From positions 1 to 52,504 of the forward strand of contig JBDKTD010000088.1 in assembly GCA_039680365.1 (NCBI GenBank): a DNA stretch of 52,504 bases, in the 5' to 3' direction. Shown piece by piece: positions 46,969-52,504 of this stretch. The stretch's first letter is position 1; each line of letters opens with the position of its first letter. The notes beneath the pieces were generated by a model. That model saw only the letters and a list, made by a program, of their open reading frames with translations, was not told the DNA's origin and did no database searches. The DNA comes from Clostridiaceae bacterium (GTDB taxonomy: Bacteria; Bacillota; Clostridia; Christensenellales; CAG-138). The translations under genes were made by a program, and so were the position numbers.

Positions 46969-47904
46969 ATGCGCCTGCGCCGCCTAGCCTGTGCCGTTCT
47001 CTCGCTCTGCCTGCTCGCCGCAGGGTGCGCAAAAACGCACGAACTGCCCGAGGACGCAAACGGAGCGCAGCCGAATGCTTCGGCTGCCGCGCTCTCGCCG
47101 TCGCCTTCCCCAACGGCTTCCCCCGCGCCAACGCCTTCTCCTTCCCCCACGCCGTATATCGGCCCGCCGGAAGGGTACACCCTGCAGTTTTCGGACGAAT
47201 TTGAGGCGGAACAGATCGACGAAACGGTTTGGAGCTTCGAAACCGGCCCCTGGCCGTATAACAAGGAACTCGAGTGCTACGCGCGCGAAAACGCCTGGCT
47301 GGAAAATGGCGCGCTCGTCATCGAAGCGCGCGCGGAATCGCTGCAGAATCGCAGCTATACCTCCGCGCGGCTCAAGACGCAGGACAAAGCAGACTTTACC
47401 TATGGATATCTGGAAGTCCGCGCGGCTCTGCCGACGGCACGGGGCACCTGGTCGGCCATCTGGCTGCTGCCCAGCGACGTTCGTTACGGCGGCTATCTGC
47501 ATTCGGGCGAAATCGACATTGCAGAGCGCGTTGGCTACGACGCAAAACTTGTGCATTCCACCTTCCATACCTTTGCCAACAACTCCGTCAAGGACAACGC
47601 CATCACCGCCTCCACCCGCATCACCCGCAAGGACGACGGGTACCATGTTTATTCCCTGCTCTGGCTGCCCGACCGCATCATCGTCCGTTTTGACGGCGTA
47701 CCCGCGCTGGAATACAGGCGGCCGGCAAACGCAACGTATGAAACCTGGCCGTTCGACGTTCCGTTTCATCTGATTCTCAACCTTGCAGTCGGCGGCACGT
47801 GGGGCGGAATTAAGGGCGTGGATCAAGAAGCGTTCCCGCAGCGCATGCTGGTCGATTACGTCCGCTACTACGCGCCCGTTTCGGTACACCCCGGCAAAGA
47901 ATAA
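46969..47904 (+). CDS. GH16 beta-glucanase (laminarinase/lichenase-like) lipoprotein
   Basis: 311 aa. Lipobox LLAAGC, a Pro/Ser/Thr linker, and the catalytic motif SGEIDIAE (E-x-D-x-x-E). Also WSAIWLLP and LNLAVGG. Confidence 0.9.
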   Translation: MRLRRLACAVLSLCLLAAGCAKTHELPEDANGAQPNASAAALSPSPSPTASPAPTPSPSPTPYIGPPEGYTLQFSDEFEAEQIDETVWSFETGPWPYNKELECYARENAWLENGALVIEARAESLQNRSYTSARLKTQDKADFTYGYLEVRAALPTARGTWSAIWLLPSDVRYGGYLHSGEIDIAERVGYDAKLVHSTFHTFANNSVKDNAITASTRITRKDDGYHVYSLLWLPDRIIVRFDGVPALEYRRPANATYETWPFDVPFHLILNLAVGGTWGGIKGVDQEAFPQRMLVDYVRYYAPVSVHPGKE

Positions 47905-47977
47905 TCCAATTCAGCCGTTCGTTCTCCCGTTAAGATGGCTCTGCACCCTGCGCCGCGCGGCGGCGGAAAAGCCTCGA

Positions 47978-48006
47978 TTGACCGCGATTGCGCGCTGATT
48001 TATACT
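47978..48006 (+). promoter_or_regulatory. Candidate promoter for the glycosidase-like / HEAT / GT2 operon
   Basis: TTGACC (47978-47983), 17 nt spacer, TATACT (48001-48006). Confidence 0.5.
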
Positions 48007-48082
48007 GGTTCTGATCTGGTAACTTTCTCTCACTGAACAATGGAATACCACCCCGTTTTACTCCATAAAAAAGGCGGTATGT

Positions 48083-50272: not shown

Positions 50273-50342
50273 CGCCCCCACCCCGCATGGTTCAAACCCC
50301 GATGCCGATACCGGCCCACAATAGGAAAGGAGCACACGAAGC

Positions 50343-51455
50343 ATGATTCTTGTACAGGCGGTCGTAAACTGGCTCATCATTATCATGGCGACGGTGCTCG
50401 CGTTATTTACGCTGCTGCTGTTAACGCTGCACCTCACCAACTCCATCAAGAGCAAGCGGATTCAAGCCATGCGTGAGCAGCTCATCTGTCTTCTTTCGGG
50501 TGAAGCCGCGGCCAATCGGCTTAAAACCAAGCTGTACGAAGTGATCCGTCAGGAGGAAGGTTGCATCGTTCAGTCGATTTCGCAGATTCGCGGCATCCGC
50601 TCCCTGCGCGGGCTGCTCGTCGTCTCCGAAATTGCAGACGAACTGAGCGGCGCCGATCTGGCGGTGCTCTGCCGCGAAATCGGTGGGGAATGGTACTCCA
50701 AGTATCTCAAGCAGCAGTTCGAGGACGGCAGCGTGGATTCGGTCATCCTCGTGGTCAAGCTCGTAGGCACCTTGGGGCTCAAGCAGTATATTCCCGATGT
50801 GGTGCAGCAAATCTATTGCCACCGCGTCAACCCGCATATGCAGCATATCGGCCTGCTGTCGCTCTGCCTGCTCGGTTCGGAAGCATCTCTCGTCTCCATC
50901 TGCCGCGACCCGACCATTGCGTCTCTGCTGTCGTTTCGAACGCTGGAAGAGCTCTTTACCGTCTACAAAGGCGACCGCGAAACGCTCTGTAAGCGCCTTA
51001 TCGCCACCGCGGCGGACCAGTATATCCGCCGAACCTGCGTAAAGGCCATCGGCGAGTACCAATACACCTCGCTTGCCGATCAGGTGCTGCCGCTTCTGGA
51101 CAGCCCGCAGCTCAACATGCAAATCGACGCGGTAAGGTCTCTCGGACAGCTTGCCTGCGCCCCCGCTTATTCGAAGATTGCCGCCATGGCAAAGAACGAG
51201 CGTTGGGAACTGCGCGCGGTCGTTGCCAGCGCGCTCGTCAGCTTCGGCGTGGACGAAAATCAGAAAACGCTGATCGACTTGCTCTGCGATCGCGAGTGGT
51301 GGGTTCGCTTTCGCGCGGCGGAATCGCTGATTCAAAGCAAGCATATCAAGGCGATTCAAAATGAAGTCAAACAGCGCGGCGACCGCTACGCGGAGGAAAT
51401 GCTCCAGTTCGCGCTGGATAAACAAGCGCTTCGCAGCCGGAAGGGGGTGGCTTGA
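50343..51455 (+). CDS. Membrane-anchored HEAT-repeat protein
   Basis: 370 aa with RBS AAGGAG. One N-terminal TM segment (LIIIMATVLALFTLLLLTL). Helical repeats follow, with HEAT-like elements (IRRTCVKAIGEY, MQIDAVRSLGQL, RWELRAVVASAL, EWWVRFRAAESL). The stop overlaps the next start as TGATG. Confidence 0.8.
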   Translation: MILVQAVVNWLIIIMATVLALFTLLLLTLHLTNSIKSKRIQAMREQLICLLSGEAAANRLKTKLYEVIRQEEGCIVQSISQIRGIRSLRGLLVVSEIADELSGADLAVLCREIGGEWYSKYLKQQFEDGSVDSVILVVKLVGTLGLKQYIPDVVQQIYCHRVNPHMQHIGLLSLCLLGSEASLVSICRDPTIASLLSFRTLEELFTVYKGDRETLCKRLIATAADQYIRRTCVKAIGEYQYTSLADQVLPLLDSPQLNMQIDAVRSLGQLACAPAYSKIAAMAKNERWELRAVVASALVSFGVDENQKTLIDLLCDREWWVRFRAAESLIQSKHIKAIQNEVKQRGDRYAEEMLQFALDKQALRSRKGVA

Positions 51456-52504
51456 TGAGTCTGCATGACGTTTTACTGAAGATTGTGCTGGGCATCAACT
51501 ATTTTTCACTGTTCTATGTCATCGCCGTCAGCACGATTTACCTCATCCAACTGATCTCAGCCTCCATCGGCCTTAGCAGGTATGTTCGTTCGCTGCGGTA
51601 TATCGACTACCGCCGGTTCCTCGATTCGGATCATATGGTTCCGATTTCGCTGCTGGTTCCCGCCTACAACGAGTCGGCAACCATCGTGGATTCCGTGCGC
51701 AACCTGCTTTCGCTCGACTTTCCGGAGTACGAGGTCATCGTTGTCAACGACGGCTCCAAGGACGATACGCTCCAGCTTTTAATCGACGCCTACGAGCTGC
51801 TGCCGTTCCGCCAGCCGTATAAAAAGTCGCTCGAAACGGAAGAGATACTGGAAATCTACCGTTCCGCGGTGGATGAAAAGCTCATTGTGCTCAACAAAAA
51901 GAACGGCGGCAAGGCCGACGCGCTCAACGCGGGCATCAACGTCGCTTCCTACCCGGTCATCGTGACCATAGACGCGGACTCCATTTTGGAAAAGAGCTCG
52001 CTTATCAAGATTATCTATTCGTTCATCAGCGACCCGACCTGCATCGCCGTTGGCGGTATCGTCCGCATTGGCAGCGGGTGCGAAATTGTAAACGGGCAAA
52101 TGAAGGAAGTCGGACTTTCGGACAACCCGGTCGTCGCCCTGCAGACGACGGAGTATCTGCGCGCGTTCTTAACCGGACGCATCGGCTTTGACGTAATGGG
52201 TATGCTGCTCATCGTGTCCGGCGCGTTCGGCGCGTTCAACAAGGCCGCCGTCATCGAGGCGGGCGGGTACACGCGCAACTGCGTCGGCGAGGACATGGAA
52301 CTCGTGGTCAAGCTGCATCAGCTCATGCACGATAAGAAGCGTAAATACTCCGTGCGCTTCCTGCCGGACCCCATCTGCTGGACACAGCCGCCGGAAAAGC
52401 TCAGCGATCTCAAAAAACAGCGCAAACGCTGGCATATCGTTTTGATCGACACGCTGCTCAGGCACAAGAAGATGCTCTTCAATCCCAAGTACGGGCGCAT
52501 CGGC
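51455..52504 (+). CDS. Processive family-2 glycosyltransferase (PgaC/IcaA/cellulose-synthase-like polysaccharide synthase), 5' 350 codons, runs off window
   Basis: Not in the ORF track because it has no stop. Hand translation: MSLHDVLLKIVLGINYFSLFYVIAVSTIYLIQ (TM)...ISLLVPAYNES...VVNDGSKD...KNGGKADALNAG...TIDADS...VGEDMEL...KKQRKRW. This is the D, DxD, ED, Q(R/Q)xRW series of processive GT2 synthases. Confidence 0.9.
   Translation, partial: MSLHDVLLKIVLGINYFSLFYVIAVSTIYLIQLISASIGLSRYVRSLRYIDYRRFLDSDHMVPISLLVPAYNESATIVDSVRNLLSLDFPEYEVIVVNDGSKDDTLQLLIDAYELLPFRQPYKKSLETEEILEIYRSAVDEKLIVLNKKNGGKADALNAGINVASYPVIVTIDADSILEKSSLIKIIYSFISDPTCIAVGGIVRIGSGCEIVNGQMKEVGLSDNPVVALQTTEYLRAFLTGRIGFDVMGMLLIVSGAFGAFNKAAVIEAGGYTRNCVGEDMELVVKLHQLMHDKKRKYSVRFLPDPICWTQPPEKLSDLKKQRKRWHIVLIDTLLRHKKMLFNPKYGRIG

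Follow-up and report, generated by a model that had tools for sequence, protein, structure and literature searches.

A putative synthase-dependent exopolysaccharide module of Bacillota, with a HEAT-repeat membrane partner, at the end of a Christensenellales contig

Four genes at the contig end

We examined a 52,504-nucleotide stretch of DNA from a Clostridiaceae bacterium (GTDB order Christensenellales, CAG-138; GenBank assembly GCA_039680365.1, contig JBDKTD010000088.1), here called the window, which is the whole contig and whose last genes, read to the contig end at 52504, resemble a synthase-dependent exopolysaccharide module. On its plus strand lie, in this order, a glycoside hydrolase family 16 (GH16) gene, a 730-codon frame for an extracellular glycoside hydrolase-like protein (GHL), a gene for a membrane protein with HEAT-like repeats, and the first part of a glycosyltransferase family 2 (GT2) gene (Table 1), all four placed as in an earlier reading made from the letters of this DNA alone (the sequence-only reading). 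An exact-sequence look-up of the window's HEAT protein returned no second contig, and the view beyond the contig end was taken from the closest relative, L001 (L numbers denote loci of other genomes), a 3.7-Mb Christensenellaceae chromosome reconstructed as a metagenome-assembled genome (MAG), which is collinear with the window at about 90% nucleotide identity and whose cluster ends after the GT2 gene.

The start codon of the GT2 gene overlaps the stop codon of the HEAT gene (TGATG), and a ribosome-binding site, GGAAGGGGG, lies upstream of it. The translation available in the window is 95% identical to the 474-amino-acid (aa) L001 protein and carries NDGS, DADS, GEDME and QRKRW, while the motifs conserved across the whole family are NDGS, DADS, SGAFG, GEDM and QRKRW. 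Both the overlap and the processive-synthase motif series had been pointed out in the sequence-only reading, and both are present; its proposal to inspect the missing C-terminus for a PilZ domain was carried out on the L001 relative, where the full-length chain (474 aa) contains no PilZ domain and ends after C-terminal transmembrane (TM) helices. An AlphaFold2 (AF2) model built from a 90%-identical relative (pLDDT 86, pTM 0.87) shows one helix at the N-terminus and three long ones at the C-terminus, before which the window copy stops. Over its full length this model was matched by Foldseek to the hyaluronan synthases (HAS) of Chlorella virus and Xenopus, yeast Chs1, BcsA and chitin synthases, with TM-scores of at most 0.69 and with just 13–17% identity to the solved HAS and chitin synthase folds. 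Because the full-length fold matches and the motifs are in place, we assign the GT2 to the membrane-integrated processive synthases, to which it belongs, with processivity itself predicted from model and motifs. A conserved W-G-x-x-x-R near the C-terminus of the family, which falls in the low-confidence tail of the model, may recall the WGTRG gating loop of the Chlorella virus HAS (CvHAS); its spacing is different, and we treat it as a lead only.

The HEAT protein scores 57.4 bits against HEAT_2 (gathering cut-off 27.7) and has one strongly hydrophobic segment, at residues 1–35, followed by a K/R-rich stretch, in agreement with the earlier description of a single-pass membrane protein of HEAT-like repeats. 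Canonical HEAT repeats of the PBS-lyase type make up the last third of the chain, and the family profile matches chains of the PBS-HEAT structures alphaRep, MTH187, YibA and CpcE. Judged by its alignments, the family is a distinct one: a first search gave 151 clusters at 90% identity, there are 46 clusters at 50% identity with E ≤ 1e-30, and many of the matches are about 350–390 aa long and align from end to end.

GHL has no sequence match in Pfam, NCBIfam or the PDB, and its family numbers 3558 scored homologues, with at least 593 tblastn-confirmed matches in species-representative genomes. An AF2 model of a 731-aa relative (pLDDT 85, pTM 0.84) consists of an N-terminal helix, a disordered linker, eight β/α units (residues 89–423) and a C-terminal β-sandwich. 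Foldseek placed a GH157 endo-β-1,3-glucanase first (E 2e-11), followed by GH2 enzymes, GH5 mannanases and GH164, with the clan GH-A matches spanning E values of 2e-11 to 1e-7 at 10–15% identity; the modelled barrel would thus be a clan GH-A-type (β/α)8 barrel, as had been guessed from the sequence. Six residues are invariant, R129, E227, H331, Y333, E374 and W426, and on the model the Arg lies on β2, the first Glu after β4, the His and Tyr on β6 (SYHVY), the second Glu on β7 (AEFG) and the Trp after β8. E227 stands three residues past the strand 219–224 and E374 within the strand 370–375, both assigned by strand order, and residues of the catalytic type are retained in 71 of the 86 standard-length members. 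With the residues so assigned, GHL is predicted to be a retaining glycanase or transglycosylase. It carries an N-terminal anchor or a lipobox, the lipoprotein call being drawn from a lipobox-like sequence.

The sequence-only reading treated GHL in the window as one intact open reading frame (ORF) and overlooked a premature in-frame TAA, which divides the frame into pieces of 247 and 481 codons; in L001 the gene encodes an intact 731-aa protein. Compared with L001, the window gene has no frameshift and no further stop. The ratio of nonsynonymous to synonymous substitution rates (dN/dS) against L001 is 0.14–0.25 for both GHL pieces and 0.07–0.16 for GT2 and HEAT, and because the ratio is this low on both sides of the stop we regard the TAA as recent, or as a sequencing or assembly error, rather than as the mark of an old pseudogene.

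The GH16 protein meets the Pfam model PF00722 (69.7 bits, gathering cut-off 22), and its EIDIAE fits the ExDxxE catalytic motif. Its N-terminus has a hydrophobic segment and then LAAGC, a lipobox-like sequence by which the protein is a probable lipoprotein; the earlier call of a GH16 lipoprotein holds, the lipoprotein part as probable by virtue of that lipobox. Its matches are of the laminarinase/lichenase type (EglC-, ExoK- and BglS-like).

Recurrence of the trio and its cyclic di-GMP neighbourhood

Conservation was assessed with hidden Markov models (HMMs) of our own for the GHL, HEAT and GT2 families, scanned over the 80 best GHL loci at species level. At 47 of the 80, a HEAT gene lies directly upstream of a GT2 gene of the module's GT2 family, on the same strand and adjoining GHL (triad loci), and, starting from HEAT homologues, a GT2 or GT2-like gene lies directly downstream in six of six contexts. 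The HEAT–GT2 adjacency, whose conservation in relatives the sequence-only reading had named as a point to check, is thus borne out from both sides, and by gene fusions as well. Gene orders include GHL-HEAT-GT2, HEAT-GT2-GHL and a long GHL-HEAT-GT2-GHL-GHL form, and the hosts of the trio are Christensenellaceae, Lachnospiraceae, Ruminococcus, Clostridium and Thermobrachium, together with Paenibacillus, Cohnella, Priestia, Metabacillus, Neobacillus and a Treponema MAG. GHL-TM-HEAT fusions of about 1040–1110 aa (L015 and L091, for example) are followed by the GT2 gene, and Heliophilum fasciatum (L057) encodes a 1378-aa fusion that runs TM, HEAT, GT2, TM and an extra domain; the predicted topologies of these fusions are consistent with a GHL outside the cell and a HEAT domain inside it, beside the catalytic domain of the GT2. 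The GH16 gene lies directly upstream of GHL at L006, L007 and L009, which are closely related loci in two different outer contexts. Of the 47 triad loci, 44 have no GH16 gene, and we class it as an accessory component limited to a small subclade of three loci.

The loci around the trio showed several further variants. At L091 and P0354, where the GT2 follows a GHL-HEAT fusion, the GT2 bears an extra coiled-coil-like C-terminal extension of about 190 aa (L091 10333–12324), and these extensions contain no PilZ and no other Pfam domain. A membrane-anchored protein of about 373 aa lies between GHL and HEAT at L022 (3297–4415), L027 (10071–11192) and L030 (10022–11140); its domain, which has no Pfam match, is the one found in the C-terminal 350 aa of the Heliophilum HEAT-GT2 fusion (L057 1296–5429, minus strand). 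In loci of the Ruminococcus and Paenibacillus types, HEAT is closely preceded by long GHL paralogues of about 1000 aa (L041 2198–5242; L023 10132–13155, for example). Most of these are without the catalytic residue set, which the Bacillaceae versions of about 1080 aa retain; we rejected them as the main enzyme because many have lost that set, and by their sequences they may be non-catalytic binding or guide proteins. One lineage, always found between a barnase/barstar pair and rluB, has kept HEAT and has no GHL (L003 10001–12436, L089 7001–9420, L090 7001–9380), and its GT2-like ORF of about 440 aa has lost NDGS, DxD, GEDM and QxxRW while staying intact in several species; its product may be a pseudo-enzyme that has kept some function other than catalysis. 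GHL also occurs without HEAT (L017, L018, L019, L029, L033, L040, L045, L048 and L058, with GHL at about 8000–10100), in clusters with a different GT2 of about 454 aa, an exosortase-like gene, a PTPS-like gene, a 355-aa unknown and often a GdpP-like DHH phosphodiesterase. These clusters resemble the XrtG-associated system, so that in Firmicutes GHL seems to accompany PgaC-like synthases more generally, as their partner outside the cell.

When the neighbouring genes were clustered, one family dominated, that of REC, GGDEF, HD-GYP and kinase proteins. Within 3.5 kb, 24 of the 47 triad loci carry a gene for a GGDEF or HD-GYP protein; counted by gene, such domains are encoded by 29 of 258 genes nearby and by 1 of 155 at greater distance (Fisher p = 1.5e-5, with shared ancestry left in), and only 4 of the 33 GHL loci that have no HEAT-GT2 pair have one nearby. 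At least five different architectures carry the link to cyclic di-GMP (c-di-GMP). Bacillaceae loci have REC-GGDEF-REC upstream and a REC protein plus a hybrid kinase downstream, Ruminococcus-type loci have an HD-GYP protein of about 700 aa upstream, clostridial and Carnobacterium loci have a REC-GGDEF-REC or PAS-GGDEF-HD-GYP protein set between GHL and HEAT, and a divergent operon of solute-binding protein, REC-HD-GYP protein and kinase flanks the module in the window, L001/L006, L010 and L088. Independent evidence comes from Rfam: at five loci a c-di-GMP-I or c-di-GMP-I-GGC riboswitch lies within the cluster, directly upstream of a gene that we label f6, for a secreted protein of about 295 aa (L023 6642–7745, L024 6563–7669, L036 6621–7746, L034 6603–7628 and L035 12591–13646, the last on the minus strand). 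In the first four f6 heads the module operon; the L035 gene follows closely downstream of GT2, on the other strand. The f6 protein has no Pfam match, and its profile matches PDB entry 10yv, a "putative GH97 from Cellulomonas fimi" (E 2e-18), which makes it a candidate further glycosidase of the module. Genes and riboswitches together give a c-di-GMP link at 28 of the 47 triad loci, and the varied gene arrangements argue that this association arose more than once.

In the window itself the adjoining c-di-GMP phosphodiesterase operon that the sequence-only reading had described is indeed there, on the minus strand, with an HD-GYP response regulator that is probably a c-di-GMP phosphodiesterase, judged by its domains and its HD and GYP motifs. 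The ORF of the hybrid kinase reaches 44282, with its probable start at MKRTKW (44180), and the Pfam domains recorded for its L001 homologue are SBP_bac_3, HisKA, HATPase_c, Response_reg and Hpt; the solute-binding protein has a probable start at 46664. A near-consensus promoter had been proposed ahead of GHL, and a site matching 10 of 12 consensus positions does stand there. Sigma-70-like sites are not above chance in the region, at 3 against 1.9 ± 1.5 in shuffled sequence, and the site is no evidence of function. The stretch just before the sensory operon (32343–41142) is occupied by a cellodextrin-type utilisation cluster with, besides the GH94 and GH9 genes, a LacI regulator and two ABC permeases; further upstream are genes for an alpha-amylase family protein and for a SASA esterase.

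Table 1. Features of the module and of its surroundings in the window
Feature	Position	Strand	Basis or remark
GH16 glycoside hydrolase	46969..47904	+	Pfam GH16 2.8e-19; EIDIAE motif
Extracellular GH-like protein (GHL), interrupted by a stop codon	48083..50272	+	Fold model, homologues, invariant residues
In-frame TAA nonsense codon within the GHL gene	48824..48826	+	TAC (Tyr) in L001
Single-pass membrane protein, cytoplasmic HEAT-like (PBS-lyase type) α-solenoid	50343..51455	+	HEAT_2 1.9e-15
GT2 membrane-integrated processive synthase (predicted), first 350 codons	51455..52504	+	Pfam Glycos_transf_2, Glyco_tranf_2_3, Glyco_trans_2_3
Hybrid sensor histidine kinase, last gene of the divergent sensory operon	41262..44180	-	ORF; 95% identical to L001 homologue
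Response regulator with HD-GYP output domain	44197..45270	-	Pfam Response_reg 2.9e-23, HD_5 4.1e-32; HD and GYP motifs in translation
Extracellular solute-binding protein, first gene of the sensory operon	45348..46763	-	SBP_bac_8 4.9e-24, SBP_bac_1 8.6e-20; 90% identical to L001 homologue
Promoter-like site before GH16, TTGACG-18-TACAAT	46852..46881	+	Consensus scan, 10/12
Promoter-like site before the GHL gene, TTGACC-17-TATACT	47978..48006	+	Consensus scan, 10/12
GH94 phosphorylase, cellodextrin-type cluster	32343-34766	-	
GH9 gene, cellodextrin-type cluster	39787-41142		

Likeness to known synthase systems

Comparison of the trio with characterised operons in the searched literature, the point on which the sequence-only reading had staked its claim of novelty, gave no operon onto which it maps and one annotated counterpart, in the NELoc-2 locus of Clostridium perfringens. 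The partners of known systems that had been reported missing are likewise missing from the module, which contains no BcsB-like protein, carbohydrate esterase family 4 (CE4) deacetylase, PgaD/IcaD or degenerate GGDEF receptor.

Among curated families the GT2 scores best against TIGR03937 (PgaC_IcaA), with 160 bits (E 7e-47) for the L001 protein and 151 for the window fragment; the cut-off is 422.3, and by this score the GT2 is not a PgaC/IcaA equivalog. The L001 protein reaches 105 bits with the XrtG-associated GT2 family, 40 with cellulose synthase and 27 with NodC. The likeness to PgaC/IcaA lies in a GT2 of about 410–470 aa with N- and C-terminal TM helices and QxxRW, and in the second membrane protein that PgaC/IcaA needs; in Escherichia coli, c-di-GMP acts on the PgaC-PgaD pair (PMC7112194). 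The partner in PgaCD and IcaAD is a small two-helix protein, whereas that of the module is a 370-aa HEAT solenoid protein; neither a small PgaD/IcaD-like membrane protein nor a CE4 deacetylase is present among the genes of the window and of the L001 locus, and the window, unlike Pga systems, contains no PgaA or PgaB. With Bcs and the clostridial CcsABZ the module shares a processive GT2 fold, an extracellular partner and, as predicted, a cognate glycosidase and c-di-GMP control, but the Bcs synthase carries a C-terminal PilZ domain and is partnered by BcsB, while the module has no PilZ (in L001) and no BcsB-like protein was detected in it; against the cellulose synthase model TIGR03030 (CelA) the 40 bits of the L001 GT2 compare with a cut-off of 699.

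The YdaJKLMN system of Bacillus subtilis and the PssA-E system of Listeria join a PgaC-like GT2 to a glycosidase and to accessory proteins outside the cell, and each has its own dedicated c-di-GMP input; the module resembles them as a Gram-positive synthase-dependent system with the same kinds of parts. In both, a membrane protein whose GGDEF domain is degenerate (YdaK/PssE) serves as receptor, and the hydrolase is a GH8; the module has neither, with HEAT in the partner position, and the four window genes contain no GGDEF domain by Pfam. The GGDEF proteins that adjoin the module in other loci are of the REC-GGDEF-REC or PAS-GGDEF-HD-GYP type. Class I HAS and chitin synthases are the closest solved folds to the GT2 over the whole chain, channel included, but they work without a HEAT partner. 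The XrtG-associated GT2 clusters (TIGR03111, to which the window GT2 scores 100 bits) have the same GHL family, a related GT2 and an exosortase-like gene; XrtG-type loci have no HEAT, and the window has no exosortase or PTPS-like gene. By sequence, then, the module differs in defining features from each of Bcs, Pga/Ica and Yda/Pss, though it would follow the same working scheme of processive GT2, membrane partner, extracytoplasmic glycosidase and c-di-GMP input.

The counterpart in C. perfringens consists of the last three genes of NELoc-2, CP4_0466 (a 685-aa hypothetical protein), CP4_0467 (a 377-aa HEAT protein) and CP4_0468 (a 466-aa GT2 that the annotators named "chitin synthase"), which follow CotH, VTC and "tubulin" (DUF4956-like) genes (Lepp et al. 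2010, PMC2879425). Order, sizes and annotations are the same as in our module, and the likeness is drawn from these three points. The neighbours differ, being CotH, VTC and DUF4956 genes at NELoc-2 and the c-di-GMP operon and GH16 in the window; the CotH/VTC/DUF4956 accessory set also adjoins Gram-positive pel loci. Two plasmid hits came from tblastn with a clostridial HEAT protein as query, one of them, from Paenibacillus, unannotated and the other on a Planococcus maritimus plasmid, whose layout, VTC-DUF4956-CotH-hypothetical-HEAT-GT2, is that of NELoc-2 and whose proteins score 298 (GHL), 53 (HEAT) and 378 bits (GT2) against our family HMMs. Because all three Planococcus proteins match the family HMMs, we take the window trio to be homologous to the NELoc-2-type arrangement. 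The GHL of the Planococcus type appears to be without the catalytic residue set, though the alignment is uncertain. On this plasmid (L086, NZ_CP059541; 1738–10092 and 12287–16645) the NELoc-2-like cluster, in the order hypothetical-VTC-DUF4956-CotH-GHL-HEAT-GT2, stands beside a Qat anti-phage system, and because it is plasmid-borne there the module can evidently move on mobile DNA.

The searched literature, which spans few subscription journals, gave no functional study of a GHL-HEAT-GT2 trio. A 2024 study of NELoc-2 only annotates it, with a re-annotation that lists a polysaccharide deacetylase, and a survey of exopolysaccharide operons (PMC7112194) does not describe such a system, so that in this literature the module is described by annotation alone. 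The mention of a "HEAT repeat" in the lipocone paper proved irrelevant to it.

A probable exopolysaccharide machine, and the alternatives

Since the trio recurs across Firmicutes, often beside c-di-GMP genes or riboswitches, it is probably an undescribed biofilm-polysaccharide machine, and we think it likely that the window's 46969–52504, together with the sensory operon at 41262–46763, represents a single instance of a synthase-dependent exopolysaccharide module that is widespread in Bacillota. In such a module the GT2, by its fold and motifs, would polymerise a β-linked glycan from a nucleotide sugar and thread the chain through its own TM channel, and the HEAT solenoid, which synteny and fusions associate with the GT2, would sit beside its catalytic domain as an obligate partner and act as co-subunit or regulator. 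One or more membrane-anchored GHL proteins outside the cell would, as their fold and conserved Glu pair suggest, trim, release or transglycosylate the emerging polymer, which in the window's subclade GH16 may also process outside the cell. Control of output would lie with c-di-GMP, by way of diguanylate cyclases or HD-GYP phosphodiesterases encoded next to the module or of c-di-GMP-I-class riboswitches, the corresponding link in the window being the divergent operon of solute-binding protein, REC-HD-GYP protein and hybrid kinase.

How the module would sense c-di-GMP is a narrower matter. PilZ and degenerate GGDEF domains were looked for in the module, neither was found and no other known receptor was seen, and the only cytoplasmic parts of the module are the GT-A domain and the HEAT solenoid. 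The HEAT protein could be a new class of c-di-GMP receptor, or a c-di-GMP-dependent activating subunit, that gates the GT2, a proposal that we hold tentatively and consider doubtful; by analogy with PilZ, PgaD, PelD, Alg44 and YdaK/PssE elsewhere, it might act alone or at the interface with the GT2. The search for a ligand-binding signature in the HEAT family gave W288, R291, D316, W319, V321, R322 and D347 as conserved, and because these are canonical structural residues of the repeat, the sequence speaks neither for nor against c-di-GMP binding.

Several observations count against the exopolysaccharide module as outlined here. At 19 of the 47 triad loci there is no c-di-GMP gene or riboswitch nearby, and no riboswitch was found in the window with Rfam at gathering scores, nor upstream of the module at E ≤ 1. 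The conserved HEAT residues all belong to the structure of PBS-type repeats, and nothing among them points to a ligand site. The acid/base Glu of clan GH-A usually lies within an N-E motif; in GHL the corresponding motif is G-I-E, with Ile rather than Asn ahead of E227, and E227 and E374 are placed on β4 and β7 by the strand order of the model. About 12 Ruminococcus-type and 7 Bacillaceae loci of the census share architectures and are not phylogenetically independent, and in the copy studied here a stop interrupts GHL and the contig ends within GT2. The members of the module are, moreover, known from genes and predictions alone.

The nature of the polymer divides the evidence, since the GT2 is closest to enzymes that make chains containing N-acetylglucosamine (GlcNAc), and GH16 and, weakly, the GHL fold point towards β-glucan. 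The sequence-only reading had favoured a β-glucan-like polymer, for which GH16 and the GH157-like fold do speak, but the families nearest to the GT2 polymerise GlcNAc-containing chains. The trio could instead be a divergent Pga/Ica-type system for poly-β-1,6-N-acetylglucosamine (PNAG), or a system for another GlcNAc homopolymer, for instance a chitin-like one, with HEAT in place of PgaD/IcaD. TIGR03937 as best curated family, the use of UDP-GlcNAc by HAS and chitin synthases (the best structural neighbours), the C-terminal motif that recalls CvHAS, the "chitin synthase" annotation of the C. perfringens homologue and the deacetylase of the NELoc-2 re-annotation all lean that way; the score far below the equivalog cut-off, the missing CE4 deacetylase and PgaD/IcaD-like protein in the window and L001, glycosidases of GH16 and clan GH-A-like type rather than GH153 or dispersin-like type, and the differing spacing of the W-G…R motif lean the other way, and overall we rate a GlcNAc polymer of this kind as possible though rather unlikely. 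A shade less probable still, in our estimate, is a β-glucan synthase of curdlan-, mixed-linkage- or Tts-like type with GH16 and GHL as glucanases or transglycosylases acting on its product. The laminarinase/lichenase-type GH16 that immediately precedes GHL at three related loci, in two outer contexts, and GH157 as the best fold match of GHL, would suit it, but most triad loci have no GH16, a Foldseek likeness to clan GH-A at 10–15% identity is uninformative on specificity, and the GT2, with just 40 bits to the cellulose synthase model, is nearer to families whose chains contain GlcNAc. A nutritional role of GH16 is also conceivable, because the cellodextrin-utilisation cluster with GH94 and GH9 genes lies in the same window.

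Two further readings concern this copy and the trio as a whole. If the TAA, at a position where relatives have Tyr, is real, GHL would be dead and the module in this genome non-functional or decaying, with the module's normal product no longer made; module decay does occur, because the L003/L089/L090 lineage has lost GHL together with all the GT2-like catalytic motifs. The dN/dS values of the GHL pieces and of GT2 and HEAT, the lack of frameshifts and further stops, HEAT and GT2 genes intact up to the contig end, and the possibility that a single altered base in an assembled contig is erroneous weigh on the other side, and we give decay a minority chance. It is very improbable that no polymer machine is present at all and that a non-processive, GtrB/CsbB-like GT2 acting on a lipid carrier merely has HEAT and GH genes as unrelated neighbours. 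Pfam Glycos_transf_2 by itself cannot separate processive from non-processive enzymes, yet QRKRW followed by C-terminal TM helices, full-length structural matches to HAS, Chs and BcsA, and fusions and conserved synteny with HEAT and GHL all set the GT2 apart from such enzymes; a grouping with non-processive enzymes, which the sequence-only reading had named as a result that would undo its proposal, was examined, and by fold and motifs the GT2 groups with the processive synthases.

We return to the exopolysaccharide module as the likely reading, and to what it would mean. To our knowledge few synthase-dependent exopolysaccharide systems have been described, namely those for cellulose, PNAG, alginate, Pel, Pss/Yda and Nfr. 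Each of the known systems has been informative on biofilm formation and its control by c-di-GMP. The module appears to be another such system, spread over gut, rumen, soil and spore-forming Firmicutes, and it brings two new parts, a HEAT-repeat partner and a glycosidase-like GHL family outside the Pfam and NCBIfam models searched. Its strong genomic ties to c-di-GMP, in a module that contains neither PilZ nor degenerate GGDEF, make the question of the sensor directly testable. A homologous trio lies in a chromosomal locus tied to necrotic-enteritis strains of C. perfringens, so its function would bear on a veterinary pathogen. If the HEAT protein is a receptor and GHL a new clan GH-A-like family, the trio would represent an unrecognised and widespread exopolysaccharide system of Firmicutes, that of NELoc-2 included.

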